Origin: a virus
Taxonomy: Duplodnaviria; Caudoviricetes
Length of the DNA: 58,428 nt
Direction: 5' to 3' (one strand)
IMG/VR virus record: IMGVR_UViG_3300037634_006328
Location: 1 to 58,428 of that record
The position numbers and the translations under genes are program-made. Shown here piece after piece: positions 6,129 to 45,521 of this stretch. Each line of letters starts with the position of its first letter. The first letter of the stretch is position 1. Below the pieces are notes generated by a model that did not search any database, was not told where the DNA came from, and saw only the letters and a list, made by a program, of their open reading frames with translations.

Positions 6129-6973
6129 ATATTGTTGGATTAGGTAACGCTGGGTGTAATATCGCTGGACGCTTCAAAGATCTCGGTCCTTATCGTGTTA
6201 CAACTATCGATTCAGAGCGCAGAGAGGGAAATCATATCGAAATTCCTGTTCAGCTACGCCCAGAAGGATACGAGGAGAATCCTCCTCAAATAAGTCTTCC
6301 CGAAGGCGAAACTATGTTGATCGTCGCAGGCGCAGGCTATATTTCAGGTATGTCTTTGACTATCTTGCAACAGATCCAAAACCATAAGTTGGACGTGATG
6401 TTTATAGTCTCCGATAATGAGATTCTGTCCGAAAAAAGAAAGATGCAGGAGCGCGTTACGTTCAACGTATTTCAAGAATATGCGAGGTCCGGTTTATTGC
6501 GTAATGTGTACTTGATCTCCAACTCTTCCGTGGAAAAAGTGCTTGACAACGTACCCATCGTCGGTTACTATGATCGTATAAATGACGCGATTGTTTCTGC
6601 CTTCCACATGGTGAAGGTATTTGAGCACGAGAAGCCTATTATGGGCCAACTAGAAGTGCCTCACGACACCGCACGCATTGTTTCTTATGGTATTTACAAT
6701 ATCGAAGAAAACGAAGAAATGCTGTTTTTTAGCCTTGACAACGTGCGCGATTCGTGCTATATTTTAGGTATAACAGAGAACAATTTAAACACTGATGGGA
6801 CTCTCCGAAGAACCATCGTGGACAACCTACGCGCAAAGGCGCTAGATTATAGTTCCAACGTATCTTTTGGTATCTATCCGATAGATTATGAGGCGAACTA
6901 TACATACGTGAAAATGTATTCATCAGATATTCAAATTTACACTACAGAAGGGGAAACGAATAATGGCGATTAA
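6125..6973 (+). CDS. divergent tubulin/FtsZ-family GTPase (PhuZ/TubZ-like)
   Basis: N-terminal NIVGLGNAGCNIA; degenerate signature VAGAGYISG; ISN and YDRINDAI motifs at FtsZ-like positions. Confidence 0.65.
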   Translation: MNIVGLGNAGCNIAGRFKDLGPYRVTTIDSERREGNHIEIPVQLRPEGYEENPPQISLPEGETMLIVAGAGYISGMSLTILQQIQNHKLDVMFIVSDNEILSEKRKMQERVTFNVFQEYARSGLLRNVYLISNSSVEKVLDNVPIVGYYDRINDAIVSAFHMVKVFEHEKPIMGQLEVPHDTARIVSYGIYNIEENEEMLFFSLDNVRDSCYILGITENNLNTDGTLRRTIVDNLRAKALDYSSNVSFGIYPIDYEANYTYVKMYSSDIQIYTTEGETNNGD

Positions 6974-7724
6974 TATTGAAAAAATGAGAGCAAAACTCGA
7001 CGCTTTGAACAACAAAGGGGGAGATAATAACCAAATGTGGAAGCCTGAACCGGGCTCACAGGATATCCGGATTGTGTGTCCAGAAGACAGCGATCCGTTT
7101 AAGGAATATCACTTCCATTACCTCAAAAGAGAAGGGTTTTTCAAGTCCGTGCTTTGTCCAAAGCGCAACTTTGACGACAACTGCCCAATTTGCGATTTCG
7201 CAAGTCAGGTTTGGAAAGAGTCGAAGAACAATGACGACAAAACCGGCATGGATTTGGCAAAGGGGCTCTTTGTCCGGCAGCGGTACTATTCCCCTGTGTT
7301 CGTAAGGGCTCAAGAGGAACAGGGTGTCCGAATCTGGGGGTACGGCAAGCGCGCCTATGAACAGTTGCTTAATCTGGTCTTGAATCCAGACTATGGTGAC
7401 ATCACCGATCCCGAAACTGGCATCGACATTACCCTGGTATACACAAAGGCCGATGGCCCTGGAAAGTTCCCAACAACCACGCTCACACCTCGTCGCAAGG
7501 AGAGTGTTTTGGCTGAAACGGACGCCGCTGTTACCGAAATTCTTGAAGGTACACCAACCTTTTCAGAGATTCCGTTTTTTGCCCGCAAGACAACGAAAGA
7601 TGCGCAACTGGCGATGGACGAATTTCTTGAAGAAGAGTCGGAAGGGAGTGACGAAGTTGTGAAGATTGGCGGCGATTCTCTTTCAAAGACCGATCAGGCG
7701 TTCCGCGACTTGCAGAACAGTTGA
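6963..7724 (+). CDS. single-stranded DNA-binding protein (gp32-like)
   Basis: WKP..G...IRI, H.H, CP...CPIC Zn site, DYGDITDPETGIDI, acidic tail; between polymerase and recombinase. Confidence 0.8.
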   Translation: MAINIEKMRAKLDALNNKGGDNNQMWKPEPGSQDIRIVCPEDSDPFKEYHFHYLKREGFFKSVLCPKRNFDDNCPICDFASQVWKESKNNDDKTGMDLAKGLFVRQRYYSPVFVRAQEEQGVRIWGYGKRAYEQLLNLVLNPDYGDITDPETGIDITLVYTKADGPGKFPTTTLTPRRKESVLAETDAAVTEILEGTPTFSEIPFFARKTTKDAQLAMDEFLEEESEGSDEVVKIGGDSLSKTDQAFRDLQNS

Positions 7725-7753: not shown

Positions 7754-7864
7754 CGAGATATGTATGGAAACAATACTTGTTTTCGCAAAGTTGCTTACTC
7801 TCTTGATCTTTTGGGTCATGATGAGGCATTTGTGGAAAGAATTCTTTAAATAGGGGTGGTGTAT

Positions 7865-8992
7865 ATGGCGAGAGCCAAAAAGATCGATAAACCAGGGCGT
7901 TTATCAATCGCTGATATGCGTAAAGCGATCAACAAAAAGGCCGGCTATAAGGTCGCGCATGATTTAACAACCGAGAATCCAACCGAAGTAAAGTATTGGA
8001 TCCCAACAGGCTCCAGATGGCTTGACTCTATTGTTTGTAGGGGGAGGATGGCTGGAATTCCAGGCGGCAAAGTGGCCGAAATCTCCGGATTGCCGGCGTC
8101 CGGCAAGTCTTATATGGCTGCTCAAATTGCAGCCAACGCGCAAAAGATGGGAATTGATGTTATCTATTTTGATGCCGAATCTGCACTTGATCCTACATTC
8201 TTGGAAAACGCCGGTTGTGATTTGGATAATCTTCTTTATATTCAGGCGGCGAATGTCGAATTCGTATTTGAAACGATCGAAACGGTCTTAAACTCAACGG
8301 AGAACAAGGTTTTGTTTGTTTGGGACAGTTTAGCGCTGACCCCCACTATTTCAGATATTGAAGGGGACTTCAACCCGCAGTCTTCCATGGCTGTGAAGGC
8401 TCGCGTCCTCTCGAAAGCCTTTCAAAAGGTGACTATTCCATTGGCGAATCATGGCTCGACCATTTTGATTCTAAACCAATTGAAAACAAAGATTCACAGC
8501 AACCCAATGATGGCTAAGTTTGATCCATACACCACACCCGGCGGTAAGGCAGTTGTATATGCTTGTTCTTTGCGAATTTGGTTGACAGCCAGAAAAGGCA
8601 AGGACACAAAGCTGATGGACTCAAACAATTTCCAAATAGGTTCAGAAGTTAAGGTGAAGCTTAAGAAGTCTCGTTTTGGGACTGAAAATCGTGAATGCAT
8701 CCTCAAAATCATTTGGGGAGAGGATGATGTTAGGATTTGCGATGAAGAAGGGTGGCTTGAAGCCCTCCAGTTCTCTAAGTCTGACCGATATAGGGGTGGA
8801 GCCTGGAAGACTCTTGTTCTGAACGATGGGACTGAAAAGAAGTTCCAAGAAGGGGGCTGGCTTGAATGTCTGAAGGATGATTTATTCCGCGAGTCTGTAT
8901 TTCAGATCATGGATGAAGAGATCATTCGAAAGTTTGATAAGCGTGAAGGTGATGCGAATTCGTTTACCAATCTAGAGCCGGAGGAAGAATGA
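7865..8992 (+). CDS. recA: RecA/UvsX recombinase
   Basis: IPTGS..LD, Walker A GLPASGKS, YFDAESALD, WDS, ILILNQL, TPGGKA. Confidence 0.92.
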   Translation: MARAKKIDKPGRLSIADMRKAINKKAGYKVAHDLTTENPTEVKYWIPTGSRWLDSIVCRGRMAGIPGGKVAEISGLPASGKSYMAAQIAANAQKMGIDVIYFDAESALDPTFLENAGCDLDNLLYIQAANVEFVFETIETVLNSTENKVLFVWDSLALTPTISDIEGDFNPQSSMAVKARVLSKAFQKVTIPLANHGSTILILNQLKTKIHSNPMMAKFDPYTTPGGKAVVYACSLRIWLTARKGKDTKLMDSNNFQIGSEVKVKLKKSRFGTENRECILKIIWGEDDVRICDEEGWLEALQFSKSDRYRGGAWKTLVLNDGTEKKFQEGGWLECLKDDLFRESVFQIMDEEIIRKFDKREGDANSFTNLEPEEE

Positions 8993-9948
8993 AAAGAGTT
9001 ATGATCATTGATGCTCTTAATCAATTTTTGAGAGCATATATTGTTAATCCGACCCTAACATCAAATGGCAACCCTATTGGCGGTGTTATCGGCTTTCTGA
9101 ACATTCTTGGTAAACTTTGTAGAGAAATAAAGCCAGATCAGGTTATGATCTGTTGGGACAGCCCTGGCGGAAGCCTTAAGCGCCGCCAAATGAATAAAGG
9201 TTACAAAGCTGGTCGTAAGCCTATCAAAAAGAACTATGAAGTTGATGGGATGGATGAACAGTCCGAATATGAGAACAAGATATGGCAGCAAGAGACCTTG
9301 ATACACATCTTGAATCACATGCCAGTCCAGCAATTCTTGTTACATGGTTCGGAAGCAGATGATATCGTTTCGTTTTTGGTTGGTTCACCAAGACTGAAAG
9401 GTTTTCAAAAGGTGATCGTATCGGCTGATAAAGACTTCATTCAGCTTTTGGATGACGAGACGGTTATGTATCGCCCAATTCAGGATGAAGTCCTGAACTG
9501 CCCAGTGATTGTGGAGAAGTTCAATATTTCACCTCAAAACTTTGTTTTAGCAAGAATCCTCACAGGCGATAAATCCGATAATCTCGATGGCATACGCGGA
9601 GTTGGTCTAAAGACCGCCGCAAAGCGTTTTCCATTTTTGAAGGAAGAGAAGGCACATCTGCTCTCCGACTTGAAAACTTATTGTGAAGAGACCGAGGAGA
9701 CACAAAAGATATATACAGATGTTCTGGAGCAGTGGGAAAAAGTTGAAGATAACTACAAGATCATGAACCTTGTTCCCCCACTTATTTCTGCGTCCGAATC
9801 CATGAAAATCAAAGCAATACTTAAAGATTTCGATTTCACGCTCAATGCCACTGAATTGAAAAAGACAAGTATCAATTACGGGTTTGCGTCATACGACTGG
9901 AGTAGGTTAATAGGTATCATGAAAGGAATCCAAGAAAGGAACAACTAA
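8989..9948 (+). CDS. 5'-3' exonuclease / flap endonuclease (T4 RNase H-like)
   Basis: IIDALN, YKAGR, EADD, SADKDFIQL, GDKSDNLDGIRGVGLKTA (H3TH). Confidence 0.9.
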   Translation: MKRVMIIDALNQFLRAYIVNPTLTSNGNPIGGVIGFLNILGKLCREIKPDQVMICWDSPGGSLKRRQMNKGYKAGRKPIKKNYEVDGMDEQSEYENKIWQQETLIHILNHMPVQQFLLHGSEADDIVSFLVGSPRLKGFQKVIVSADKDFIQLLDDETVMYRPIQDEVLNCPVIVEKFNISPQNFVLARILTGDKSDNLDGIRGVGLKTAAKRFPFLKEEKAHLLSDLKTYCEETEETQKIYTDVLEQWEKVEDNYKIMNLVPPLISASESMKIKAILKDFDFTLNATELKKTSINYGFASYDWSRLIGIMKGIQERNN

Positions 9949-11305: not shown

Positions 11306-13168
11306 ATGGAATTAGCATCGGAGATTTTATCAGATATTACAGTACATACCAAATATGCGCGTTATTTGGAAGAACAACAGAGACGCGAGACATATGCGGA
11401 AATAACAACGCGAAATAAGAAGATGCATATGCGCCGCTTCCCCTTTCTCAAAGAAGAGATAGAATCGGCCTATGAATTTGTGTATGACAAAAAAGTCCTA
11501 CCTTCGATGCGTTCGATGCAGTTCGGCGGCAAGCCAATCGAGATCAGCCCCAATCGCATCTTCAACTGTGCTTATCTACCGATTGATGATGCCCGTTCCT
11601 TTTCGGAAACAATGTTTTTGCTTTTAGGTGGCACCGGAGTAGGGTTCAGTGTTCAAAAACACCATGTCTCCAAATTACCGGAAATAAGAAAGCCCAATGG
11701 CAAGCGAACAAGAAGGTTCCTTATCGCCGATTCTATTGAAGGGTGGGCAGACGCCGTAAAGGCGCTTGTTTCCGCTTATTTCAAAGGCACCTCAAGGCTT
11801 CGGTTTGATTTCTCCGATATTCGCCCAAAGGGCGCAAAGCTTGTGACTTCAGGCGGTAAGGCTCCAGGTCCACAGCCATTGAAAGAATGTTTGCTCAAAT
11901 TGGAAGGTATTCTGGAAAACAAAGCTGATGGAACACAGCTATCTACTATCGAAGTCCATGATATGGTTTGTCATATTGCTGACGCCGTTTTGGCCGGCGG
12001 TATCCGCCGCGCAGCGCTGATTTCCTTATTTTCCGCTGGCGATAACGATATGCTTTCTGCAAAGTCTGGCAAGTGGTATGAAAAAGATCCACAGAGAGGT
12101 AGGGCTAACAATTCAGTAGTTCTGATGCGCCACCGAATCACTAAAGAATATTTTATGGACCTGTGGGAGCGCGTCCGCGCCTCTGGGGCAGGAGAACCAG
12201 GGTTCTATTTCACGAATGATAAAGACTGGGGATGTAATCCGTGTTGTGAGATTGGCCTTAGACCTTACCAGTTCTGTAATTTAACTGAAGTGAATGTCTC
12301 TAATATTGTATCACAGGAAGACTTGGAAGCCCGCGTGAAGGCTGCTGCGTTTATCGGTACTTTGCAAGCCTCATATACTGATTTCCACTATCTTCGACCG
12401 GTTTGGCAAAGAAACACCGAAAAGGATGCCCTTATTGGTGTTTCGATGACTGGGATTGCAAGTGGCTTGGTTCTAGATATGGATATGACCGCCGCTGCCG
12501 CCGTAGTCAAGGCTGAAAACGCAAGAGTTGCCGAAAAGATTGGCCTCAATCCTGCGGCTAGAACGACGTGTGTGAAACCGGCAGGAACCACAAGTTTGAC
12601 TTTGGGAACCTCCAGTGGAATTCACGCTTGGCACGATGATTATTATATTCGTAGAATGCGGGTTGGCAAGAACGAATCCATTTATCAATTCCTCGCAGAG
12701 TACCACCCAGAACTCGTTCAGGACGAGTATTTCAAGCCGCACCTTGAAGCCGTGGTGGAGGTTCCGCAGAAGGCTCCTGAAGGCGCTATAACCCGGTCAG
12801 AGAGCGCCCTTGACCTTCTTGCAAGGGTGAAGCTGGTCAGCACTCAATGGGTCGCCAAGGGTCACAGAAAGGGTCAGAACACGAACAACGTTAGTGCAAC
12901 GATCAGTATCAAAGAACATGAGTGGGAAGAGGTCGGCGAATGGATGTGGGAGAATCGTAAGGTCTATAACGGACTTTCAGTGATGCCCGAAGATCTCGGT
13001 TCTTATGTCCAGACTCCTTTTGAAAGTTGCGATAAAGAGACCTATGAAAGAATGATGAAGAATTTACAAGAAATAGAGATTAGTTCAATTGTTGAATACG
13101 ACGATAACACCGATTTGAGCGGCGAATTGGCTTGCGCAGGCGGGAGTTGTTCGGTTTCTTATCTTTAG
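11306..13168 (+). CDS. nrdJ: class II (B12-dependent, monomeric RTPR-type) ribonucleotide reductase
   Basis: FNCA, GGTGVGFS, GGIRRAA, NPCCEI, FCNLTE, TTCVKPAGT, C-terminal CAGGSC; no beta subunit nearby. Confidence 0.88.
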   Translation: MELASEILSDITVHTKYARYLEEQQRRETYAEITTRNKKMHMRRFPFLKEEIESAYEFVYDKKVLPSMRSMQFGGKPIEISPNRIFNCAYLPIDDARSFSETMFLLLGGTGVGFSVQKHHVSKLPEIRKPNGKRTRRFLIADSIEGWADAVKALVSAYFKGTSRLRFDFSDIRPKGAKLVTSGGKAPGPQPLKECLLKLEGILENKADGTQLSTIEVHDMVCHIADAVLAGGIRRAALISLFSAGDNDMLSAKSGKWYEKDPQRGRANNSVVLMRHRITKEYFMDLWERVRASGAGEPGFYFTNDKDWGCNPCCEIGLRPYQFCNLTEVNVSNIVSQEDLEARVKAAAFIGTLQASYTDFHYLRPVWQRNTEKDALIGVSMTGIASGLVLDMDMTAAAAVVKAENARVAEKIGLNPAARTTCVKPAGTTSLTLGTSSGIHAWHDDYYIRRMRVGKNESIYQFLAEYHPELVQDEYFKPHLEAVVEVPQKAPEGAITRSESALDLLARVKLVSTQWVAKGHRKGQNTNNVSATISIKEHEWEEVGEWMWENRKVYNGLSVMPEDLGSYVQTPFESCDKETYERMMKNLQEIEISSIVEYDDNTDLSGELACAGGSCSVSYL

Positions 13169-13248
13169 TACATTATGAAAAGAGCATATACACAAGAATA
13201 CTTTATCCATATGTGTAAAATGATAGCAGAAAACAATAAGGATGTAGA

Positions 13249-13581
13249 ATGACAATTGAAGAATCGGAAGCACTTCGGCAAGAAGTCTTAACTGGTAACA
13301 TTCTTGAAATCATTAACAACGTCGACCCACAAGGTTTGGTAAGATCTGGCTGCCCTTTGGACGAACACATGATGGAAGCCCAGATGATTTCAAGATATGT
13401 GGAGAAACACCCAAACGTACACCGCGATGTTTTGGCAGAACAGGTGAAAAACATTTTTGATGATGTGAACGGACTTGAGGAGAAAGCTCGTCAGTCCACA
13501 TCGTTAATTCGCAGAATACATAGGCGCGAATACGAACAGGTCGCTTATCGTATCCACAAAATGCTTGACAGCTTTGTTTGA
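13249..13581 (+). CDS. hypothetical protein
   Basis: 110-aa ORF with RBS. Confidence 0.55.
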   Translation: MTIEESEALRQEVLTGNILEIINNVDPQGLVRSGCPLDEHMMEAQMISRYVEKHPNVHRDVLAEQVKNIFDDVNGLEEKARQSTSLIRRIHRREYEQVAYRIHKMLDSFV

Positions 13582-13612
13582 AGTGGTTATGTTTACTACG
13601 TGAGTAAACAAA

Positions 13613-13834
13613 ATGAGATTCAACCACTTATTGCCAAAAAATGAGGCAATCCAAACCTGTCCCACAAATGGGGCAGCACATTATTATGTCCCAACCAGTC
13701 ATATTGAAAGTATGCTTGGTGGGGCTATCTGCGTCCGCTTTCGCTGTAAGCGCTGCAAACAGTTGGCAAACGCATATCTCGATGAAGAAGAGTTTAGGCT
13801 GAATGAAAATTCAATTAGGAGTAATACAAAGTGA
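13613..13834 (+). CDS. small zinc-ribbon protein
   Basis: C..H and CKRC motifs; sigma70-like promoter upstream (TTGACA 13565). Confidence 0.55.
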   Translation: MRFNHLLPKNEAIQTCPTNGAAHYYVPTSHIESMLGGAICVRFRCKRCKQLANAYLDEEEFRLNENSIRSNTK

Positions 13835-14121
13835 AATTAATACCATTTAACAAGCGTTTGTTAGTATCTTTCCCGGATGAAAAGAAAGAGATAGAAGAAC
13901 TATCGTTGGCCAAAAGCTTTGGCGTCGATAATTCAAAAAAGCCAATTGGTGATAGTTTGGTCATTTTGGATGTTGAACATGTCGGTGAAGAGTTAGAATA
14001 TTCGAATTTCACGAATTTCAAACAAGTGTTGGTCCCCAGACACATGATTGAAACTTTCAAACTAGATGGCAAGGAATATCATTTTGTCGAATATCGAACA
14101 ATTGTTGCGGGTGTGAAGTGA
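13831..14121 (+). CDS. groES: GroES-like co-chaperonin
   Basis: MKLIPFNKRLLV...DGKEYHFVEYRTIVAGV resembles the GroES ends; 96 aa; GroEL is present in the window. Confidence 0.65.
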   Translation: MKLIPFNKRLLVSFPDEKKEIEELSLAKSFGVDNSKKPIGDSLVILDVEHVGEELEYSNFTNFKQVLVPRHMIETFKLDGKEYHFVEYRTIVAGVK

Positions 14122-14366
14122 GTGACAATAAGCCCCCTATCGGATTTGATGATACTGATTTGGTAATTATACGAAATTCTCTCGCACATTCCCAAAGAGC
14201 TTGGAACAAATGGGTCGACGAAGATTCTCTTCCCGAGCCATGGGATCCTCCTTCTGCCCGTAAATTGATTAAAAGAATGGGTGAAATACTTAGTAAATTT
14301 GAGTTTCTTGGGACGCCAAAAGAACAAAAAACGGATTATCCAAAAGTGGCACAAAATGAACAATAA
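14118..14366 (+). CDS. hypothetical protein
   Basis: Coupled GTGA overlap with the upstream gene. Confidence 0.5.
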   Translation: MSDNKPPIGFDDTDLVIIRNSLAHSQRAWNKWVDEDSLPEPWDPPSARKLIKRMGEILSKFEFLGTPKEQKTDYPKVAQNEQ

Positions 14367-14991
14367 CAAAGTTGAATGGATTGGACACTACGGAAACGAT
14401 CTTTTACACGGACTTTCTGCTTGGACGTCTACAAGTCGTAATCTGACTGAAAAGAAGCGAAACAGGGTTGACAAGCTGCTCAAAATGCTGGCAACAGAAG
14501 GTCACAACACTCCTTTTGAGAAGTCGGCACTACACTTTCTTGTAACAACCGATATTGCAAGTCATATTCACCTTTTGAAGCATCGTGTTGGTGTGTCGAT
14601 TAATGGCGAATCAGCGCGATATAAAGAATTTACAGAAGATAAGTTCTATATTCCTGGCGATTGGCCCGAAAGAGAGCAGCGCGCCTTAAGAAATCATATT
14701 CTCACCTCTTATGAGAAATATCACGACTGCATAAGCCGGCTTCTTGATCAAGGGGTACCCAGAAAACGAGCAAAGGAATCAGCAAGATTCTACCTGCCAT
14801 ATGGCATCCAAATCACCGCAGATGTGATGTTCAACTGGCGGTCTTTTGCGCACTTCCAGAAATTGCGAAACGAAGAGCATGCACAGAAGGAAATCAGAGA
14901 CATCGCCCAAACAATGCTTGAGCAAGTTGAAGCGACAGGTGATTTTCCCTTTACAATTGCAGCAATGCGTGAAGCGAAGATGATACCGTGA
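14356..14991 (+). CDS. thyX: flavin-dependent thymidylate synthase
   Basis: GHNTPFE, KHRVGVSINGESARY (ThyX motif), ESARFYLP, NWRS...LR..EHAQKEIR. Confidence 0.92.
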   Translation: MNNNKVEWIGHYGNDLLHGLSAWTSTSRNLTEKKRNRVDKLLKMLATEGHNTPFEKSALHFLVTTDIASHIHLLKHRVGVSINGESARYKEFTEDKFYIPGDWPEREQRALRNHILTSYEKYHDCISRLLDQGVPRKRAKESARFYLPYGIQITADVMFNWRSFAHFQKLRNEEHAQKEIRDIAQTMLEQVEATGDFPFTIAAMREAKMIP

Positions 14992-15677
14992 AATATCTTA
15001 TTGCACTGCTGGCTTGCTCCTGCGTGAAGGCCAGGGAGCCAATAGAGACCCCATATCAAGAGCCGGAAACAATTGTGGAGGTAGCAGTAGAAGAGAGGCT
15101 CCCTCCAGATACAGGGTTGGTGGATGATTTTGAATTGTTTAGTCCAAATTTACCCTACTGTAGACCCGGCGACCATAATGAAATTGATTACGGCGCAGTA
15201 GACAGTAATTATTACAACGAGTGGACCAAGGAATGGAGGTGGTGCATAAGTGATTATGGCGTCGAAGGAAACTATAGCTATTATGTGGTGAATCAAGCAG
15301 GGGAAACACTCTGCGGATACACATACAGATTTACTGGCACATTTCGTGAAGACTTGACCATAACACATTGGCACTATGCTTTCGAGATAGAGGACTCTTG
15401 GTTGCACTGGCATGATGCAACCCAGAATTACATGATGTATGGCATATGCAACCCTTCTAGTAACATAGCCACATACTGGAGGATATCCCCAGAAAATATT
15501 AGAGACGGTATTCCTTGGGAGTTGCTGTATAGCCACAGCGCTGCTACAGGTGTATGGTATCCGCCTTGGTATCATTATAACAAATATGATCCCCTGTATT
15601 ATGCATTACAGGCAAGACCGGCTAAAGCGCCAAATGGTGATATAATCATGAGAATCACTTATCAATTAATGGATTGA
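14988..15677 (+). CDS. putative lipoprotein, aromatic-rich
   Basis: MKYLIALLACSC signal peptide/lipobox-like N-terminus. Confidence 0.55.
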   Translation: MKYLIALLACSCVKAREPIETPYQEPETIVEVAVEERLPPDTGLVDDFELFSPNLPYCRPGDHNEIDYGAVDSNYYNEWTKEWRWCISDYGVEGNYSYYVVNQAGETLCGYTYRFTGTFREDLTITHWHYAFEIEDSWLHWHDATQNYMMYGICNPSSNIATYWRISPENIRDGIPWELLYSHSAATGVWYPPWYHYNKYDPLYYALQARPAKAPNGDIIMRITYQLMD

Positions 15678-15714
15678 AAAAATGTTAATTAACATTTACT
15701 TGACAATTTAACTG

Positions 15715-15743
15715 TTGACCTGTCGCTCTACAGGTGGTATAAT
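15715..15743 (+). promoter_or_regulatory. sigma70-like promoter heading the repeat-delimited ORF array
   Basis: TTGACC-N17-TATAAT. Confidence 0.7.
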
Positions 15744-15769
15744 TATGGGGTAAGCAAGGATAGCGAAGA

Positions 15770-15871
15770 ATGAGTTTGAGTAGATTTTTTCTCTATTTGT
15801 CACGACTTTTTGCAGACAAGCACGGTCATGAAAGAGATGGAACTTACCATCAATGGGAGAGCGAAGAATGA
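15770..15871 (+). CDS. 33-aa ORF, first member of the ESEE array (not in ORF track)
   Basis: MSLSRFFLYLSRLFADKHGHERDGTYHQWESEE*; starts in a partial repeat AGCGAAGAATGA and ends in a full repeat. Confidence 0.55.
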   Translation: MSLSRFFLYLSRLFADKHGHERDGTYHQWESEE

Positions 15872-16122
15872 AATACGGTGGGAAACAAGGAATGAAAGTC
15901 GGCGATAAAGTTCGTGATCGTCTTTTCTACTTTGACAGCGAGTTTAATAGAGGGATAGGAACTATTACTGAGATTCACCCGATTGAAGCGGAGCCCAAAG
16001 GTTTCTTTTATGCTGTCATAAAATGGGACAACGAAATCCCAGAGGGAAATCCATTTGCTTTGACCGACGATACAAGCGAAGATTATTTAGAGGATGTTGA
16101 ACTTGTGGAGAGCGAAGAATGA
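15868..16122 (+). CDS. small KOW/SH3-like hypothetical protein (array member)
   Basis: MKVGDKVR motif; ends ESEE. Confidence 0.65.
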   Translation: MKYGGKQGMKVGDKVRDRLFYFDSEFNRGIGTITEIHPIEAEPKGFFYAVIKWDNEIPEGNPFALTDDTSEDYLEDVELVESEE

Positions 16123-16445
16123 GTATTGAAGTTGCGACATCTGCCCGGATGAGAAAGGGAACTCTCCAAGCGAGGCATAAGATTAGCGTGTCGGTATCCA
16201 ATGCTTTTAGGAAAGAGCTAAAAGTGTGGGAAGATGTATATAAGAGAGATGGTTATATAGGGAAGGGGCATTGGCTATCTATCAGTGTAGGTTTACAGAA
16301 TGTTGTTGCTGATGCTCTTATATCCACTAAGGAATTCCAAGAACTGTCCGAAAGAGAAAAGTTAATGATGGCTTTCTCCATCGGTCAGGGGATAGAAGAG
16401 GAGTTTAGGAAGTTCCAGTCAAGGGTTAGGGAGAGCGAAGAATGA
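16119..16445 (+). CDS. hypothetical protein (array member)
   Basis: ATGA overlap in the repeat; ends ESEE. Confidence 0.65.
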   Translation: MSIEVATSARMRKGTLQARHKISVSVSNAFRKELKVWEDVYKRDGYIGKGHWLSISVGLQNVVADALISTKEFQELSEREKLMMAFSIGQGIEEEFRKFQSRVRESEE

Positions 16446-16708
16446 AAAATCCTTTGGTTGACGAAGACTTTTATATTCCAGTATCCTACAAAGGAAAGCC
16501 GGTAGAATACCGAGGTAAGATCTCTGATAGAGAATCTTTCGAGGGCAAAGAAGAAGGAATTTATTATTTGATTTCCACTGGGTCTGCCTACTGCTACTAT
16601 GACGGCGCTGGCATGCTTGATTTGCGGTTTATACCCAACCCACATAATCCAGAGGTTGCACATATGGAACCTTGTTGGTACAGTGAGTTGAGGGAGAGCG
16701 AAGAATGA
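16442..16708 (+). CDS. hypothetical protein (array member)
   Basis: ATGA overlap in the repeat; ends ESEE. Confidence 0.65.
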   Translation: MKNPLVDEDFYIPVSYKGKPVEYRGKISDRESFEGKEEGIYYLISTGSAYCYYDGAGMLDLRFIPNPHNPEVAHMEPCWYSELRESEE

Positions 16709-16959
16709 TTAAGGGAAGCAAGGAATTAACAAAAAAGGTGTGGTTAAGCGATGATAACTTTAACTCCGACAGAGATGTAGCCCGAAAAGCAATATCTAAG
16801 ATAATAGCCGATCACTATGAAATCCCTTTAGAAAGTGTTGAATGGCGAGATTTTCGAAAGCCAGGATGGCACATAGATCCTCCCGGCAGGTTCTTTATAG
16901 ATGGGGAGCCCTTGCATATGTATGTGTTCGGACCTGGGGATGAGGAGAGCGAAGAATGA
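16705..16959 (+). CDS. hypothetical protein (array member)
   Basis: ATGA overlap in the repeat; ends ESEE. Confidence 0.65.
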   Translation: MIKGSKELTKKVWLSDDNFNSDRDVARKAISKIIADHYEIPLESVEWRDFRKPGWHIDPPGRFFIDGEPLHMYVFGPGDEESEE

Positions 16960-17732
16960 TCCTGGACTCACAAATATGTGAGAACATTGTGATTGGCGGC
17001 TCGACAGAAGCGATATTGTATGCATACAAACACAAGTATCCATTGATAATGCCCTATGTTGAGCCGCTTTTTCCTTTTGAAAATATTAACATCGAAATTG
17101 CAAATCTGAAGAACCCTTTAGAAGAAGAGTTAAGATGCAAACTCCTCTTTTTGATGGGTCTAGACAGTTTGCTCCCAATACCCTTTTCAGTAAGCGGTGT
17201 AAAGATAAAGAATCAAGTTATCATGATTGCGATTAAAGATAAAGGCACCGTCGTGTACAAGTTCGATAAACTACACATTTTTGACGATCGCAATGTTCGG
17301 GGCTTACCAAAAGTCGTGGATACCAGGAAACGCAAAAGAACAGTTATTGACTGGTTCGTTGTCAAGACTGGCATGGAACATGAACATGAAGAGTATAGAG
17401 AAAAGGGTTTGCGGCTTATCTTTTACCCAACAGAACGATTCGCTGGAAGAACTACTTTAAAAGACGTGATCGCGATTACATCACTCCAGAAGAAACAGTT
17501 GAATGACTTTGATTATTCCTCTTCCATGGTCCGCTTGCAAGTCGAAGAGATTATGGTGAATATGGGGGTTGCTCCGAAAATAGAAATAGAATTCGCTGAA
17601 CGTCAGGTCATCGGCCAAGATCGATACATATACGAAGAAGACGAAAGGTTTATATTTCTGGAAGATATGAAAATCGAAGAGATTGCCAAATTGGAAGAGA
17701 AAGAGAGCTATTGTTCTCAATTGGGGATATAA
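16956..17732 (+). CDS. hypothetical protein with degenerate Rossmann-like N-terminus
   Basis: NIVIGGSTEAILYAY resembles a VIGGG..GL.AA dinucleotide-binding strand-helix. Confidence 0.5.
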   Translation: MILDSQICENIVIGGSTEAILYAYKHKYPLIMPYVEPLFPFENINIEIANLKNPLEEELRCKLLFLMGLDSLLPIPFSVSGVKIKNQVIMIAIKDKGTVVYKFDKLHIFDDRNVRGLPKVVDTRKRKRTVIDWFVVKTGMEHEHEEYREKGLRLIFYPTERFAGRTTLKDVIAITSLQKKQLNDFDYSSSMVRLQVEEIMVNMGVAPKIEIEFAERQVIGQDRYIYEEDERFIFLEDMKIEEIAKLEEKESYCSQLGI

Positions 17733-18568
17733 TGCACTTAGCTGGAATTGTGCCTGTTATTTCGCAAACCAGGGACTTCAAGATGCCTTGGGATGACTGT
17801 CTTATGCCAATTGCCCCCGGATATTTGGCTTATGAGCGCGCCGTGTTAGAATGCGCGTATGCTGGCTGTGATACGATATGGATAATTTGCAACGATGACG
17901 TGTCTCCAATTGTGAGAAAGAGAATTGGAGACTTTGTCGAAGACCCGGTTTATTTAGGTCGAAAAACCCGCTTTCCAGACAAGGAAAGAAAGCCGGTCTC
18001 CGTTTATTACTTGCCACTGAATGTACAAGACTTTTACAAACAAAATTGCCAGGCATGGGCGATAACTTACGGGGCTTTGACAATTAAAGACATTTCAGCC
18101 AGAATCAGCAAATGGGTAATGTCCGAGAAGTATTATGTGGCGTTCCCACACTCTGTTTATGATCCTGCGATCGTGAGAGAGGACAGAAGGCTCATAACAA
18201 CAAAAGACAACTATTTCCTACAAAATGGCAAGACGTTCGCAGATGGGGAAAAAATGGGCTTCTCATTCGGTAATGAAGACTTAGAGAAATTCGAAAGGTA
18301 TTTTATAGATTTGGAAAACAACGAATTGTTCTCTCGGAATACAGAATATTGTAGGGAATACTATGACAACCGCGTTTTACTTGACAACCTCTCTGATTTG
18401 GTTATATTAAAGGAAACAGACAAGGTGCGCCCCGTTCCATGGAGCCACCAGATCGATACGTGGGATCAATATTGCGCCTTTTTAAAAGATCCTGTAAGCA
18501 AGACTTTAGCCCATCCAGGCGAACTAGTTATGTCTTACAGGGAACAGCGCGGCATTGGCGGAATTTAA
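17732..18568 (+). CDS. sugar-phosphate nucleotidyltransferase-like (GT-A fold) protein
   Basis: HLAGIVPV...P..CLMPI...ERAVLEC..AGCDTIWII resembles the NTP_transferase N-terminus. Confidence 0.5.
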   Translation: MHLAGIVPVISQTRDFKMPWDDCLMPIAPGYLAYERAVLECAYAGCDTIWIICNDDVSPIVRKRIGDFVEDPVYLGRKTRFPDKERKPVSVYYLPLNVQDFYKQNCQAWAITYGALTIKDISARISKWVMSEKYYVAFPHSVYDPAIVREDRRLITTKDNYFLQNGKTFADGEKMGFSFGNEDLEKFERYFIDLENNELFSRNTEYCREYYDNRVLLDNLSDLVILKETDKVRPVPWSHQIDTWDQYCAFLKDPVSKTLAHPGELVMSYREQRGIGGI

Positions 18569-18824
18569 ACGTGGCGAATTAGTTAAGATTATAGACTATT
18601 ATTTCGATGTGCCTAATGAAGACTATGGCATATACCTGTCTTCCTCTCAAGGGCAAGTGGAGTATTGGGGTAATAAGATTCAATCTCGCATATTCCTCGT
18701 TTTTTGCGTGCGAACTCAACAGGTGTATCGCATACCTGAACAGGACCTGTTCTGTTTGTTGAGGCCGATTGAGGACGATAGTGCATTCCATGAAATTGAA
18801 GCTTGGAGATCTGGTTCAAGGTAA
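18555..18824 (+). CDS. small KOW/SH3-like hypothetical protein
   Basis: FKRGELVK motif. Confidence 0.5.
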   Translation: MAEFKRGELVKIIDYYFDVPNEDYGIYLSSSQGQVEYWGNKIQSRIFLVFCVRTQQVYRIPEQDLFCLLRPIEDDSAFHEIEAWRSGSR

Positions 18825-19005
18825 AAAAGGTATATTTCTCGGTTTTTTGGTCGGCAAGTATGGGGTAGTTGTAGGTTTTGAAGATCTCCTGTACCAGAGT
18901 TCTCCCCCAAATATACGGGTTTTTTGGCTTGGCGTTGGGGTGACTGATAACTGGAATCCCAATGTGGCACTTTATAGAAACAATGAACTAAGGAAGCTAA
19001 CATGA
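18790..19005 (+). CDS. small KOW/SH3-like hypothetical protein
   Basis: LKLGDLVQ...YGVVV...VFW. Confidence 0.5.
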   Translation: MKLKLGDLVQGKKGIFLGFLVGKYGVVVGFEDLLYQSSPPNIRVFWLGVGVTDNWNPNVALYRNNELRKLT

Positions 19006-19298
19006 AAAAAGAAGAAATTAAGGTCTCGATGTATTCGCAGATTGCGACACCAAGTGGGAAATGTCCCGCCGACTTGAAAAGTACGAAAATGAAAGATGTT
19101 CGTATTTGGATGGACGCGGTTAATAAAAGGTGTATCGAAAAAAATGAGATCCTCACAGAAGAGGCGTACCTGTATTATGTAAGGTATTTTCACAGCATCT
19201 TCAGCGAGGAATACAAGATCGTTGAGAAGCAGATTAAGAAGTATTCAGAGCGCAAGATTAACGAAGCGTATAAGGAGCTAAACCTTGAAAGAGAGTAA
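19002..19298 (+). CDS. hypothetical protein
   Basis: Coupled ORF. Confidence 0.55.
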   Translation: MKKEEIKVSMYSQIATPSGKCPADLKSTKMKDVRIWMDAVNKRCIEKNEILTEEAYLYYVRYFHSIFSEEYKIVEKQIKKYSERKINEAYKELNLERE

Positions 19299-22200
19299 AA
19301 TTCCATTTGTGGGCCTTCACGCCCACAGTGTGGCCGGTTCGATATTTGACGCACTGGGTTATCCCAATGAGCACATGGATTTTTGCCATTCAAACGGCGG
19401 TGAAGCATTAGCTTTGACCGATCATGGTAATATGAACGGGTTTTCTCATCAAGTCTTACACGCCAAGAAGATGAACGCTGAAGGTCGAGAATTCAAGCCG
19501 ATTTACGGTGTTGAGGCTTACTTTATCCCTTCGCATAAGAAGTGGAAGGAAGATTATGCAACTGTAATGGAGGATAAGAAAGCCGCAAAGAAGGCGAAGA
19601 AGGAAGAGACTTCTGGCGCTTCGGTCGAGAACGAAGGTGAGAGTAAAAAAGCTGCTAGAAGCATTCTGAACAAAAGACGCCATTTGGTCCTTTTAGCCCA
19701 AAACGAAGCTGGTCTAAAGAATCTTTTTAAGTTAATTTCAGATTCTTACACCGAAGACAAATTCTATCGATTCCCTCGCATCGATTACGAAATGCTCAAG
19801 AACCACTCTGAAGGTGTCATCGCGGCGTCCGCATGTCTAGGTGGGGTTTATGCGGGAAACTACTGGGAGAACCGCGAGGAGGGTCCTGAAGCCGTCCTTA
19901 AAGCCATGAGGGAGACCACAGAAGAAATGGTTGGGATCTTCGGGGACCGCTGGCACGGAGAACTTCAGTGGAACAATATTCCAGAACAGCACACCCTGAA
20001 TAAACATATCATCCAAATGCACAAAGAATACGGAATCCCTCTTATCTCAACGGCGGATAGCCACTATCCTACACCGGATGCGTGGGAATCTCGTGAAATG
20101 TATAAAAAACTTGGTTGGATGGGGAAATCAAGGCCAGATTGGGCAACTAACGAACTACCTGTTTCTGTAGAGGAGATTGGTTATGAGTTATACCCGAAGA
20201 ATGGCGATCAAATGTGGGAGTCGTATAAGAAATATTCGCAGGAGTGCGGTGTCGAATATGACGATGATTTGGTATATCAGTCTATTATCGAAACACATAA
20301 TATTGCTTTCAACAGGATTGACTCTTTTTACCCTGACACTTCTGTTAGGCTTCCTAAGTTTGTCACTCCAGAAGGTGAAACAGCAGATTCAGCCCTAAGA
20401 AAGCTTGCTTTCAAGGGTTTATTTAAGAAGGGTAAACACGAACTTCCAGAATATCGGGAAAGATTGGAATATGAACTTTCTGTAATCGCAGATCGTGGTT
20501 TTTCCGAGTATTTCCTAATGATGGATAAAATCAATGAAATAGCGGCGCAACACATGCTTTCCGGCCCCGGACGCGGATCTGCCGCCGGCTCTTTGGTCTC
20601 TTATGTAGTCGAAATTACTCAAATTGATCCAATCAAGTTTGATTTGCAGTTTGAGAGATTCCTTCGCTCCGACGCAACAGATTACCCAGATATCGATTAT
20701 GATGTTTCTCGTCCAATGGAATTGAAAGAGATTCTTGCTGATATTTGGGGAGATAATACGGTTGTGCCAATTTCCAATTGGAACACCCTACAACTGAAGT
20801 CTCTGATCAAAGATATCTCCAAGTTTTATGACATTCCTTTCGCTGAAGCGAATCTCGTAACAAACAAAATGATGATTGAGGCCACACCCCCTGCAAAGAA
20901 GGCTAGGGGTCAAAAAACAGGTGTTTACACCCCAACGTACCAAGAGGTGAAGAAGTATTCTGCATCAATGCAAGCATTCTTGATTAAGTATCCACACATC
21001 GATACACATGTCGAAGCTTTGTTTGGACAGGTTAGATCTTGTGGTCGCCACGCTGGTGGTGTCGTGATCGCCGATGATCTTGATTCTCATATGCCTCTGA
21101 TCTCTTCAAAGAATGTGCGGCAGGTGCCATGGGCTGAAGGGATGAATGTCCGACACTTGGAACCATTCGGCTTCATTAAGTTCGATATCCTTGGTCTCGA
21201 AACCATGAACACCATTGAGGGTGCGATTAGGCATATTCTCAAGCGCCACCACAACATTGAGGAGCCAACATTCGCTCAAATTAATGATTTCTATAAAAAG
21301 AATCTCCATCCGGACGTTCTTGATATGGAAGACAAAGCCGTGTGGAAGAATATCTTTCAGAAAGGTTGCTGGGCTGGTATTTTCCAATTTACGAAAGAGG
21401 GTTCACAGAATCTTTGTTCTCAAGCGAAACCTACAGGTATTGTTGATTTGGCGGCTGTAACCAGTATCTATCGCCCCGGCCCATTGGAGGCTGGCGTAGA
21501 TAAAGATTACATTGTCACCTTGAATGACCCGAAGAGTGTTCGCTATGTGAACGACATTCACAAGAATGTCACCGAAGAGACAAGAGGGTTTCTTATCTTT
21601 CAGGAACAGATTTCAGCCCTTGCTCACACTCTGGGAAAGGATATCTCTCTTAATGAAGGAAACAAGATCCGAAAGGCTCTGACGAAGACTCCTCGGAATG
21701 AAAAACTGGTTTCTTCATATCGGGATTTGTTTATCACTGGGTGTGTTGAAAAGGGTATGGCTCTGGAAGTATCTGAAAGGCTTTGGGCTACTATGGATAA
21801 TTTCTCCGGATACGGCTTCAATAAGAGTCACGCCGTATCATACAGTATCGTATCATATATGTGCGCTTGGCTATTGACCCACTATGAGCCTGAATGGGTT
21901 GTTTCATTCCTCGATAAAGAGCCGGAAGATCGCAAAGCGAAAGCAATTGCAATCGCCAAGTCTCTTGGTTACAATATTGAGCCTGTGAATGTGAATACGT
22001 CTGGTTTAACCTGGGAGATCTCGACAGACGGCACCACATTTATTCAACCACTGACAAGTGTAAAGGGCGTGGGGGAGATCGCCATTCGTGAGATAATGAA
22101 AGGTCGCCCCTTTAACAATATTGAAGAATTCTTGTTCAATGAAGAGATGCGCTATTCTAAGCTGAACAAAAAAGCTCTTGATGTTTTGGTTCGTTGCGAA

Positions 22201-42114: not shown

Positions 42115-42197
42115 GGCTTCGTGGTTGGAATTGGTATACACGAGACACTCAAAATGTCTTGCCTTCGGGCATGCGGGTTCGACTCCCGCCGAAGTCA
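42115..42197 (+). tRNA. tRNA-Leu(CAA)
   Basis: Acceptor GGCTTCG/CGAAGTC, anticodon arm AGACA-CTCAAAA-TGTCT, long variable arm, GGTTCGACTCC. Confidence 0.92.
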
Positions 42198-42213
42198 CTT
42201 TGAAAGAGGGGAA

Positions 42214-42822
42214 ATGGCTTATATTTTGGCTTTGATGCTGGCGTCTTGCATCACGGATAACGATAAGGATGGCGAACTTGTCGACAGCTTATCATTCGTG
42301 GATAGTGAAATACCGTATGTCGAACCACCAGTGTTTGATACCGCACCATCCGTGATGGACTCGTCTGTGGTTGAATTTGAAGAATGTGTAATTACCGGCC
42401 AGAATATAACAATTGGTTTGTCGCATCAAACCATCTTCGATTACAAAATTCAAATTGAAGGCTGTATCTCTTCTTTGGAGCTTGAAGTGGTCGTGGTCTT
42501 CTATGGTGAGAATTATGCAGGGGATGTGGTTTGTGGCGAAGCTGTTGTGTTTAACTCGGTGGCAACACAGCCTTCAGTACCCTGTAGTTGGTGTGACTTC
42601 GGACACGATGTGGATTTTGCCCCAATACACACAAACTTGTTCCCTCGATGCCCCGGCTTCTCAATCGACGATAACTGGTGGGACGGGATTGGGTACAACC
42701 AAGGCTCCTCTTTGTTGCTCATGGGGGATTACAGTCACCATGATTTATGGGATGCGATTCCGGTCAACGAGACACAGGAGCTTTTCAAAAACAACGCAGT
42801 TCATTTTACTTTCGTTGAATAA
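42214..42822 (+). CDS. putative lipoprotein, Cys-rich and acidic
   Basis: MAYILALMLASC lipobox; true start is after the tRNA (track start 42067 overlaps it). Confidence 0.6.
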   Translation: MAYILALMLASCITDNDKDGELVDSLSFVDSEIPYVEPPVFDTAPSVMDSSVVEFEECVITGQNITIGLSHQTIFDYKIQIEGCISSLELEVVVVFYGENYAGDVVCGEAVVFNSVATQPSVPCSWCDFGHDVDFAPIHTNLFPRCPGFSIDDNWWDGIGYNQGSSLLLMGDYSHHDLWDAIPVNETQELFKNNAVHFTFVE

Positions 42823-42977
42823 AGACAAGACAACTGACAACCCTTTGTTCTGACTGACTATGTACTAGAACATGTTGTGAAAGCCTTCAGAGAATGGCAA
42901 GTAGTATTCAGATCATTGACAACTTAAATAAGTTTTGGAACGTGTGTGAAGGGTGAGATCCGCTTGCCCTTCACTTT

Positions 42978-43046
42978 GCGGGTGCTTCAAGGTGAAGGCT
43001 TTGGTTGCCAATCAGAGATAGGTCAGTTCGATTCTGATCACCCGCT
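42978..43046 (+). tRNA. tRNA-Gly(GCC)
   Basis: GCGGGTG/CACCCGC acceptor, CTTC/GAAG D-stem, loop TTGCCAA, TTCGATT T-loop. Confidence 0.82.
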
Positions 43047-43063
43047 TTTCCGTTGGAGAGTGC

Positions 43064-43342
43064 TTGAATACTAGAAGGTTTAAATTCGAAGAAGGTGAAC
43101 TGATTGTCTTCAGAAAAAAGAAGACCGCGAAGACCATGGTTTCGCTGAACCGGATCGTGACTCACACCGTGCAGGATGGAACATTTCTAATTATTGCCAA
43201 GACTTTCCGCAGACCTCGGGGCTGGTATGGACCGCACACCCGACCAGAAAGGGAAAATTGGTATATCGTCTTCGATCCGAAGACGATAAAAAACCACACA
43301 TTCAGCGAAGAGATTCTTCGCTTTAGCGAGAAACCAAGATGA
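43064..43342 (+). CDS. small KOW/SH3-like hypothetical protein
   Basis: GGAGA RBS with TTG start; FEEGELIV. Confidence 0.5.
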   Translation: MNTRRFKFEEGELIVFRKKKTAKTMVSLNRIVTHTVQDGTFLIIAKTFRRPRGWYGPHTRPERENWYIVFDPKTIKNHTFSEEILRFSEKPR

Positions 43343-43956
43343 AATATCTATTTTTAGATTTTGATGGCGTGATATGCACCGCCAAATCATACAAACAAGG
43401 CGACAAACAATGGCAGAGAGACGGACGCCCTGCCGCATTAGGGCATAAACAAGGTGACAATTACGGCTTCGCCTCTGACTGTCGCGGCGACAGTGCTTAC
43501 AATTGCGGACCCTATCGAATCGACGCAGAGCTTGCAAAAGACGTTCAGAAGATTTGTGACACCCAAGACCAGATCGTAATCGTGCTTTCCACAACGTGGC
43601 GAAGACTTTATGAATTGAAACATCTTCGGATATGGCTCAATGAGAAAGGTATCACTGCACCAATCGTTGGCAGGACGGACCTGTTCTATTTGAAAGAGCT
43701 TGACGAATACGAAAGAGGTCATTTGATTCAGCGTTGGTGCCAGGACAATGGTGTTCCGATTGAGGATATCGTAATCCTTGATGATAATGAGATTCTTGAC
43801 CCTAACGATGAAAGGGGGAGATATCTCCCCATTGCTAGTCAGTTCGTTCATATCAAGAAAGGCTGGTCTTCTGGTGGGATAACCCAGAAGCACATCAATC
43901 AAGCAATTGGGATATTGGAAGGTAACCTATCGCAAGTTAACAAGCAGTTGACTTGA
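43339..43956 (+). CDS. HAD-family protein (Swiss-army-knife RNA-repair type)
   Basis: YLFLDFDGVI, IVLSTTWR, ERG..I..W, IVILDD. Confidence 0.8.
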   Translation: MKYLFLDFDGVICTAKSYKQGDKQWQRDGRPAALGHKQGDNYGFASDCRGDSAYNCGPYRIDAELAKDVQKICDTQDQIVIVLSTTWRRLYELKHLRIWLNEKGITAPIVGRTDLFYLKELDEYERGHLIQRWCQDNGVPIEDIVILDDNEILDPNDERGRYLPIASQFVHIKKGWSSGGITQKHINQAIGILEGNLSQVNKQLT

Positions 43957-44002
43957 CAGATCGCCTCAATCGGATACATTATATGTGTCGAAGGGGATAT
44001 AT

Positions 44003-44073
44003 TGGGATATAGTGTAACGGCAGCACAAGAGACTTTGAATCTCTCGGTTCAGGTTCAAATCCTGATATCCCTT
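44003..44073 (+). tRNA. tRNA-Gln(UUG)
   Basis: AGAGA-CTTTGAA-TCTCT anticodon arm; GGTTCAAATCC. Confidence 0.9.
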
Positions 44074-44081
44074 CTTTTGAG

Positions 44082-44768: not shown

Positions 44769-44785
44769 TTTTATAAAGAGGGAAT

Positions 44786-45472: not shown

Positions 45473-45521
45473 CTTGACAAACTCGGTCGGCAGGTTACAT
45501 TATAAGTGTAAGAAGAAATAC

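Follow-up and report, generated by a model that had tools for sequence, protein, structure and literature searches.

The phage DNA analysed here, IMG/VR record IMGVR_UViG_3300037634_006328 (58,428 bp; hereafter the window), derives from an uncultured marine phage, has a CheckV completeness estimate of 32%, and carries an array of five small genes joined to one another by exact copies of a 16-nucleotide (nt) sequence, GGAGAGCGAAGAATGA. A preliminary description, made from the letters of the window, had proposed that these 16-mers are recombination boundaries of an expandable gene array. Our comparisons uphold that proposal: relatives differ at the 16-mers in the number, identity and order of their cassettes, and a natural deletion runs from one repeat copy to another. 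The reading that we favour, at a probability of roughly 60%, is that the 16-mer is a translational-coupling linker that doubles as a short-homology recombination boundary.

A scan of the window located the five exact copies on the + strand, at 15856, 16107, 16430, 16693 and 16944, where they had been described; there were none elsewhere in the 58-kb record and none on the reverse strand. At up to three mismatches, 6 matches were found against 0.74 expected, and none of 100 shuffles reached 6. The sixth is a leading copy, GGATAGCGAAGAATGA, with one mismatch. The preliminary description had placed a partial copy at 15762, just after a promoter; a copy does follow the promoter there, but it is full length and spans 15758–15773, with 15762 the start of its exact 12-nt portion, AGCGAAGAATGA. 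The promoter itself, a strong sigma-70-like one, was recovered as described (Table 1), and no gene stands before this first copy. Read as G/GAG/AGC/GAA/GAA/TGA, the junction encodes the ESEE tail and the stop codon of the upstream gene; to the downstream gene it offers a GGAG Shine-Dalgarno (SD) sequence, an 8-nt purine spacer, and an ATG that overlaps the stop as ATGA. The map of open reading frames (ORFs) agrees with this double reading, which the preliminary description had already given. The array ORFs are 33, 84, 108, 88 and 84 amino acids (aa) long and all end in ESEE followed by TGA. Their proteins had been called unrelated to each other, and so they are, the best BLASTP E value among them being 1.9 and the similarity mostly limited to the tails. 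The repeat is sharply 16 nt long: across 180 junction contexts, information falls below 0.35 bit directly outside both ends. Because these contexts were chosen at no more than two mismatches, conservation values within the repeat are inflated and the edges alone are informative. Other coupled junctions of the window, including the one at 8981–8992 that had been offered as a contrast, differ in sequence from the 16-mer.

The exact 16-mer was present in 113 IMG/VR stretches, 20 of them with 2–8 copies. A one-letter variant, GGAGAACGAAGAATGA (ENEE), was found in at least 119 further stretches, and is the form used by the arrays of loci L123 and L124, which were reached through their cassette proteins and not through the repeat. 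Among 233 fetched loci, 54 had at least three junction-like sites (two or fewer mismatches to the junction) on one strand, and these amounted to 40 non-redundant arrays. In G001, a 163-kb relative that is 90% complete, all seven copies lie on one strand within 1.6 kb; the junction is therefore not the phage’s general ribosome-binding site. Most arrays lie directly 3′ of thyX and 5′ of a homologue of a 258-aa ORF of the window, and the interval between these two genes ranges from 0.5 to 6.6 kb and holds 1–8 junctions, as befits the expandable interval between conserved genes that had been proposed. In relatives, the array follows thyX (of type A or type B) with only the 16-mer as the joint, and in L125 the window’s first two cassette families come directly after thyX. 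The surrounding core genes are syntenic with those of G001 at 35–75% amino-acid identity. The 40 arrays contained 154 complete junction-started ORFs, with a median length of 78 aa, in 86 families of which 54 were singletons; all five window cassettes, the 33-aa one included, had homologues in other arrays. Fifty-seven of the 154 ORFs end in ESEE and 29 in ENEE. The start M[KR][VIA]G[DA] is shared by 21 of them, so some cassettes are paralogues. When 57 cassette ORFs of relatives were compared with curated families, three scored above the cut-off (DUF4385, glutaredoxin and Matrixin), two of which come after junctions with 2–3 mismatches; a few weak Zn-ribbon or membrane matches fell below it.

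When the locus was aligned across relatives, as the preliminary description had suggested, the cassettes varied and their homology stopped at the repeat. We compared the ends of same-family cassettes from different non-redundant contigs (125 end-comparisons, the near-duplicates L048, L104, L083 and L119 having been dropped). In 66 of the 125, identity was at least 0.8 in the inner 30 nt and at most 0.5 just outside the junction, and in all 66 of these informative comparisons the homology of the shared cassettes ended at the edge of the 16-mer. Exact matching continued past the 16-mer for 0, 1, 2 or 3 nt in 39, 20, 5 and 2 cases, respectively, which is near the chance expectation, and no case had the same neighbour on both contigs. 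Just 3 of 111 adjacent family pairs recurred in two arrays. Among the 19 family pairs that co-occur in at least two arrays, 4 stood in opposite relative order, so the arrays have been reordered and do not differ by differential loss alone. Cassettes that were 0.94–0.99 identical in nucleotide sequence were found while the adjacent thyX 3′ ends were 0.67–0.76 identical: 0.973 vs 0.671 for F1 (L022/L115), 0.989 vs 0.757 for F19 (L059/L115), and 0.967 vs 0.673 for F21 (L027/L110). Not every pair fits, an example being F3 in L022/L046, at 0.690 for both cassette and thyX. Judged from these identities, the exchange of cassettes is recent and horizontal.

Logan contigs from four runs were placed on positions 14200–18600 of the window. 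In run X1, possibly the sample from which the window originates, record 5 (1163 nt, 0 mismatches) joins 16692 to 16944 and skips 251 nt, which is cassette 5. The deletion joint has 17 nt common to both sides, repeat to repeat. A second X1 contig maps inside cassette 5 (16703–16894), so both cassette-5-plus and cassette-5-minus forms are present in that run. In run X3, a 1029-nt contig (record 13) matches 15856–16122, that is, cassette 2 with both its junctions, with 0 differences and diverges on either side at the repeat edges; its loose ends, as read, are an F12-like tail and an F1-like MKRYF start. Records 15 and 17 of the same run match 16107–16447 and 16693–16959 exactly. No back-joint or circular cassette joint was listed among the placed contigs, a type of data in which circles and rare forms would not show. 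Independent assemblies agree on cassette order (L034 with L048, and L022 with L083), which argues against chimeric assembly.

Some contig placements bear on single cassettes. Over cassette 4 (16405–16698), contig depths summed to ~70–155 in runs X1 and X6, compared with ~4–8 on the flanks, and there were many internal loose ends; parts of cassette 4 are carried by far more abundant relatives, contig depth being a weak measure. Four apparent joints, 15880>16075, 15880>16457, 15986>16070 and 16131>16201, with sides of 24–31 nt, were discounted, since the contigs behind them probably come from other phages and were anchored by the repeat. In RNA run X22, a 206-nt contig covers 16149–16341 with 5 differences, which is no proof of transcription of this phage.

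What is constant in the junction is its nucleotide sequence. Cassette homologues have a synonymous divergence (dS) of 0.30–1.60 and a ratio of nonsynonymous to synonymous change (dN/dS) of 0.13–0.24, the pair for cassette 1 being left out of these figures, and the cassettes are thus real genes under purifying selection. The 16-mers that flank these same homologues have 0 changes, or one each for the most diverged pair. Nor is the repeat always read in the same frame. Across the 180 contexts the upstream ORF passes through it as ESEE and stop in 133, in the +1 frame as R-A-K-N-E/D with a stop a few codons later in 26 (RAKNE), and in frame with the ATG in 3; the remaining 18 have no long upstream ORF. 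The type B thyX that precedes many arrays itself ends in ..AYRRAKNE (..VAVGAYRRAKNE) through junction DNA. Since the repeat is also read in these other frames, a peptide tag cannot be its main constraint, and the 16-mer is a nucleotide-level (DNA or RNA) element, in line with the earlier suggestion of a DNA-level repeat. Some junctions have decayed, with loss of the TGA or the ATG (e.g., ..GAAGAACTT or ..AATGC), and fuse two cassettes in frame with an internal VESEE. Examples are in L059 (oriented 1699–1980), L071 (10515–10934), L013 (10678–11061) and L055 (872–1426; L055_2103), and such fusions mean that the arrays can also yield two-domain proteins.

In the mechanism that we favour, every cassette of this lineage bears the identical linker at both ends, and the linker is for that reason the sole homology among unrelated cassettes. 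General recombination or template switching at the 16-mer, driven by homology and not by site-specific recognition, could then delete, insert, swap or reorder whole ORFs. Copies within one genome would recombine to give cassette deletion or duplication, as in the X1 variant, and non-allelic copies in co-infecting relatives would recombine to swap and reorder cassettes. Every product would regain an intact stop/SD/start joint, at which re-initiation is predicted to be efficient. The likely agents would be the phage’s RecA, gp32-like single-stranded DNA-binding protein and 5′–3′ exonuclease, or else replication slippage. The outcome would be an integrase-free, expandable accessory-gene array, a hot spot between thyX and the conserved 258-aa gene. 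Drift of the junction would cut a lineage off from the common pool, because cassettes cross between backbones that are only 20–30% identical in flanking proteins, and this penalty could itself keep the linker constant.

Several points weigh against this reading. The junction coincides with the gene boundary, so position alone cannot tell recombination inside the 16-mer from random breaks that were filtered for intact genes. Sixteen bp is short for RecA-type exchange; for T4, recombination patches of <50 bp are quoted in a passage of PMC2839356. In the other 59 of the 125 end-comparisons the inner identity was below 0.8 (diverged families, fusions or internal breakpoints), and recombination is therefore not confined to the linker. 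The two junction dialects raise a further difficulty. Position 6 of the junction gives either AGC (ESEE) or AAC (ENEE), and within each of the 40 arrays the dialect is nearly uniform (e.g., L071, L123, L125 and L120); within-array concordance was 0.864 compared with 0.520 after shuffling, and 0 of 10000 shuffles reached 0.864. For a cassette common to two arrays of unlike dialect, the two junctions differed in 30 of 36 pairs, in 15 of 15 on the side of the upstream cassette and in 15 of 21 on that of the downstream cassette. A crossover model predicts that position 6 moves with the upstream cassette, and this prediction failed (0 of 15). A simple crossover model thus does not predict the dialect pattern, and a sequence-specific factor could. 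The dialect also tracks the phylogeny of the flanking gene, and lineage structure together with frequent within-lineage shuffling may explain its uniformity.

Perhaps the 16-mer is kept for expression only, either as an optimal ribosome-binding site for coupling or, in the way suggested for the start-associated sequences (SAS) of mycobacteriophages, as an operator bound by a translational regulator or RNase, and the breakpoints record no more than selection against broken genes. The geometry of the joint (GGAG, 8 nt, ATG overlapping TGA) suits such a role, as do the stop/start overlap frame in 133 of the 180 contexts and a purine-rich motif that is unpaired in 5 of 5 folds, and the SAS of Cluster K offer a precedent for conserved repeats at gene starts, in the part of PMC3203893 that deals with them. 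Selected illegitimate joins, however, predict heterogeneous joints, and what is seen is identical 16-mers with random sequence from the next base onward. The natural deletion likewise ends in two repeat copies with 17 nt in common. Finally, the phage’s other coupled genes use different junctions, so the host ribosome does not need the 16-mer. On balance we consider an expression-only role unlikely.

An alternative that would involve new enzymology is that the phage encodes a sequence-specific factor so far unrecognised, be it a nuclease, a recombinase or an annealase, that recognises the 16-mer and mobilises single-gene cassettes by excision and insertion; the products of the conserved ORFs flanking the array, 16956–17732 (the 258-aa protein) and 17711–18568, would be candidates. 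The array would then be a ‘phage integron’ with a dialect kept uniform by co-evolution. Such a factor would fit a 16-mer that is constant letter for letter across lineages whose 258-aa proteins share 18–33% identity, the restriction of the junction to one locus, a dialect that is homogeneous in each array and goes with the resident one, and the presence next to the array of two conserved uncharacterised genes. The searches tell against it. In the window (G000) and in G001, tyrosine recombinases (PF00589) had 0 matches, with controls positive in 14 of 14 genomes, and serine recombinases (PF00239) had 0, with controls positive in 12 of 14; the scope of these searches was 32% of the window’s own genome and a G001 that is 90% complete. 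The junction has no inverted repeat or attC-like hairpin, being unpaired in 5 of 5 minimum-free-energy folds with z-scores of −2.0 to +1.5, and Rfam gave nothing relevant. The 258-aa family matches no nuclease or recombinase family and no solved chain, and, as the dialect follows the flanking-gene phylogeny, ordinary lineage structure can account for its uniformity. A dedicated factor of this kind seems to us distinctly unlikely.

The same searches bear on the word ‘integron-like’, which the preliminary description had used. Integrons comprise the integrase IntI, the attI site, attC sites and the promoter Pc, and attC sites are imperfect inverted repeats that fold as hairpins at the ends of cassettes. 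Like them, the array is promoter-proximal and holds, in one orientation, mostly promoterless, unrelated single-gene cassettes in variable number and order. Unlike them, it has no IntI match and no structured attC, its boundary is 16 nt of coding sequence and ribosome-binding site, and its carrier is a lytic-type phage genome. With no match to a tyrosine or serine recombinase and no junction hairpin, the array is not an integron mechanistically; it behaves like one, and the analogy is functional only. The scan for a recombinase gene that had been suggested thus came back empty for both enzyme classes, and the mechanistic sense of the term falls.

Selection for a shared acidic C-terminal peptide (ESEE or ENEE), such as a degradation or interaction tag, had been named as a second possibility, and the 57 ESEE and 29 ENEE ends among the 154 ORFs are what it would call for. 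As the main cause it is largely refuted and highly improbable: the repeat has no synonymous variation while the adjacent dS is 0.3–1.6, it is read as RAKNE in 26 of 180 contexts and through an in-frame fusion in 3, type B thyX reads the same DNA as ..AYRRAKNE, and the window’s first copy follows a promoter and not a gene. Hardly credible is the origin of the array by tandem duplication and divergence of one gene, or by chimeric metagenome assembly at the repeat, for which the shared M[KR][VIA]G[DA] starts and the shortness of the repeats might speak, given five mutually unrelated window proteins, 86 families (54 singletons) among 154 ORFs, a repeat of 16–17 nt that is below the 31-letter words indexing Logan contigs (which are also built from words near 31 letters), orders that recur in independent assemblies, and one cassette at 100% identity in different contexts.

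Table 1. Features of the array and its flanks in the window.
Feature	Position	Strand	Remarks
thyX, flavin-dependent thymidylate synthase	14281..14991	+	Pfam Thy1, E 3.9e-34; conserved gene upstream of array
229-aa ORF	14988..15677	+	unique to this phage; between thyX and array
sigma-70-like promoter TTGACC-N17-TATAAT, extended -10 TG	15715..15743	+	11/12 matches; best within 13000-19500
leading junction copy GGATAGCGAAGAATGA	15758..15773	+	1 mismatch; supplies start of cassette 1; L062 homology begins within it
cassette 1, 33-aa microgene	15770..15871	+	homologues in other arrays: L062 81%, L125 75%
junction 1 (ESEE, TGA, GGAG SD, ATG)	15856..15871	+	exact copy
cassette 2, 84 aa from coupled ATG	15868..16122	+	MKVGD-type family, 8-codon leader
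junction 2	16107..16122	+	exact copy
cassette 3, 108 aa	16119..16445	+	dN/dS 0.15-0.24
junction 3	16430..16445	+	exact copy
cassette 4, 88 aa	16442..16708	+	equals C-terminal half of 160-aa ORF in L016
junction 4	16693..16708	+	exact copy; left end of natural deletion
cassette 5, 84 aa	16705..16959	+	present/absent in marine metagenome; L124 homologue 57%
junction 5	16944..16959	+	exact copy; right deletion end; starts 258-aa ORF
258-aa ORF	16956..17732	+	conserved family downstream of arrays

The cassette proteins themselves gave few leads. None of the five matched a Pfam, PHROG or NCBIfam family; profile searches of the PDB with alignments of cassette 2, cassette 3 and the 258-aa family found no credible match, and for cassette 3 nothing useful came from the ESM Atlas. 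Cassette 2 had only 9 matches among 1.84 billion representatives, and one of them, a 787-aa repeat protein, was regarded as spurious. P0005 (115 aa, from the representative library) is a further mosaic: an unrelated N-terminal part precedes a segment that corresponds to the C-terminal half of the cassette 2 family, and the last residues are ENEE. In the window, the leader MKYGGKQG (8 codons) of cassette 2 precedes its family’s usual MKVGD start (15868–15894), and the first 12 residues of cassette 4 (16442–16480) are common to an otherwise different cassette in L033. The cassette 2 leader and the cassette 4 overlaps are mosaic joins within cassettes. The MKVGD cassettes may be SH3/KOW-like barrels.

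Of the genes on either side of the array, the 229-aa ORF had no Pfam, PHROG or NCBIfam match, and the fetched loci held no homologue of it except the window’s own copies. By eye, its N-terminus, MKYLIALLACS, resembles a lipobox-bearing lipoprotein signal. The ORF was apparently inserted downstream of thyX and upstream of the array, perhaps recently, and the insertion may have brought or preceded the array’s own promoter. A candidate junction relic at the end of the window’s thyX (AAGCGAAGATGA, at 14972) aligned codon for codon with the non-junction thyX of relatives and was not counted. The 258-aa ORF had tblastn matches at 22–33% identity in more than 30 array-bearing loci, and was without match in Pfam, PHROG, NCBIfam and the PDB. 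Its family, with members in L027, L071, L059, L120, L123 and other loci and always 3′ of the arrays, has a conserved N-terminal V(V/I)IGxxLxAL motif, which, reading by eye, we take to be dinucleotide-binding-like, and the invariant residues G14, D132, R161, K169 and D170.

The array sits in a region of replication and nucleotide metabolism, with genes for PolA-like, gp32-like (6963–7724), RecA (7856–8992), 5′–3′ exonuclease (8989–9948), DnaB, class II ribonucleotide reductase and ThyX proteins, then the array, then DnaE; farther along the window are dUTPase, Dam, GMP reductase, ClpP and GroEL. The sole mobile-type enzyme seen in the window was an HNH endonuclease, 24 kb from the array. Cultured relatives were not found: blastn of the array against 50,697 cultured-phage records gave no match, tblastn of cassette 2 and the 258-aa ORF against cultured phages gave none either, and DnaE was at most 31% identical to its counterparts there. 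Public runs with sequence from the stretch are marine metagenomes and viromes. The window also has a second family of repeats, unrelated to the 16-mer, with 17 sites at 27620 and 43976–57689. Each site is a module of ~50 nt in which tandem TTGACA-like boxes accompany a conserved ..GATACATTATATGTGTAAGAA / ..GGTTACATTATA.. box; such modules precede many small ORFs and also occur among the tRNA genes. Their sequence looks like that of a conserved phage promoter, which makes them similar to the PeSL-type regulatory cassettes considered below. Seven tRNA genes (Leu-CAA, Gln-TTG, Thr-TGT, Lys-CTT, Arg-TCT, Leu-TAA and Ile-TAT) lie at 42115–55827, within the small-ORF region, where the GC content climbs to about 0.50.

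The closest described system is the shuffling of PeSL cassettes in T4-type phages (Arbiol et al. 2010, PMC2839356; Comeau et al. 2014, PMC4122927), of which the 16-mer array would be a translational analogue. As those papers are excerpted here, the ORFans of hyperplastic regions, which lie between core genes, are likewise bordered by short conserved regulatory motifs; the places where relatives differ by an insertion, a deletion or a replacement coincide with these motifs; and there is no integrase, homologous recombination by the phage machinery being proposed and the cassettes being likened by the authors to integrons. The PeSL unit, as given in the same excerpts, is intergenic, combines a sigma-70 promoter, a GC stem-loop terminator and an SD sequence, and is dispersed in about 50 copies per genome. 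The linker here, by contrast, is 16 nt without promoter or hairpin, lies within overlapping coding sequence, and would act on translation, if at all; it is confined to one tight polycistronic array with one promoter before the whole. Mini-circles are shown for PeSLs in the material cited, whereas the arrays here are known from assembled contigs alone. Nor is the phage T4-type: its polymerase is a DnaE that is no more than 31% identical to those of cultured phages.

Cluster K mycobacteriophages carry the SAS already mentioned (Pope et al. 2011, PMC3203893; consensus 5′-GGGATAGGAGCCC), whose function is given as unproven in the part of that paper used here. According to that part, an SAS is, like the 16-mer, an asymmetric repeat of 13–16 nt with an SD core that stands in one orientation immediately ahead of the start codons of non-structural genes from different families, in some cases taking in the stop codon of the gene upstream. 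It differs in sequence (GGGATAGGAGCCC), stands 3–7 bp before the start and is scattered over the right half of the genome, whereas the ATG is part of the 16-mer, copies of which are found in one array only. About half of the SAS are also accompanied by an extended inverted repeat, and nothing in that part of the paper ties them to cassette shuffling.

The modular theory of phage evolution (Susskind & Botstein 1978; Botstein 1980, as summarised in PMC2839356 and PMC3029335) invokes short conserved boundary sequences that, in those summaries, allow homologous exchange to place and regulate an incoming module correctly. The theory, so summarised, concerned the functional modules of lambdoid phages; here the linkers are explicit, identical and at every gene. 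At most mosaic boundaries no conserved boundary sequences could be found, according to the account in PMC3029335. Here a short identical sequence is present at both ends of exchangeable modules, and the locus is an instance of linker-mediated modular shuffling. In the literature, supplements aside, we did not find stop/SD/start linkers described as cassette boundaries.

There are two accounts of phage mosaicism: exchange at short conserved linkers, which have rarely been found, and random illegitimate joins filtered by selection. The locus between thyX and the 258-aa gene is an unusually clean natural case of linker exchange, with population-level evidence. Because the linker consists of a tail, a stop, a ribosome-binding site and the next start, any inserted gene is predicted to be expressed at once. 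The pool of cassettes is open, with 86 families in 154 ORFs. These arrays offer a simple rule for spotting such gene pools in metagenomes, and suggest that large phages with core proteins only 20–30% identical trade small accessory genes without an integrase.

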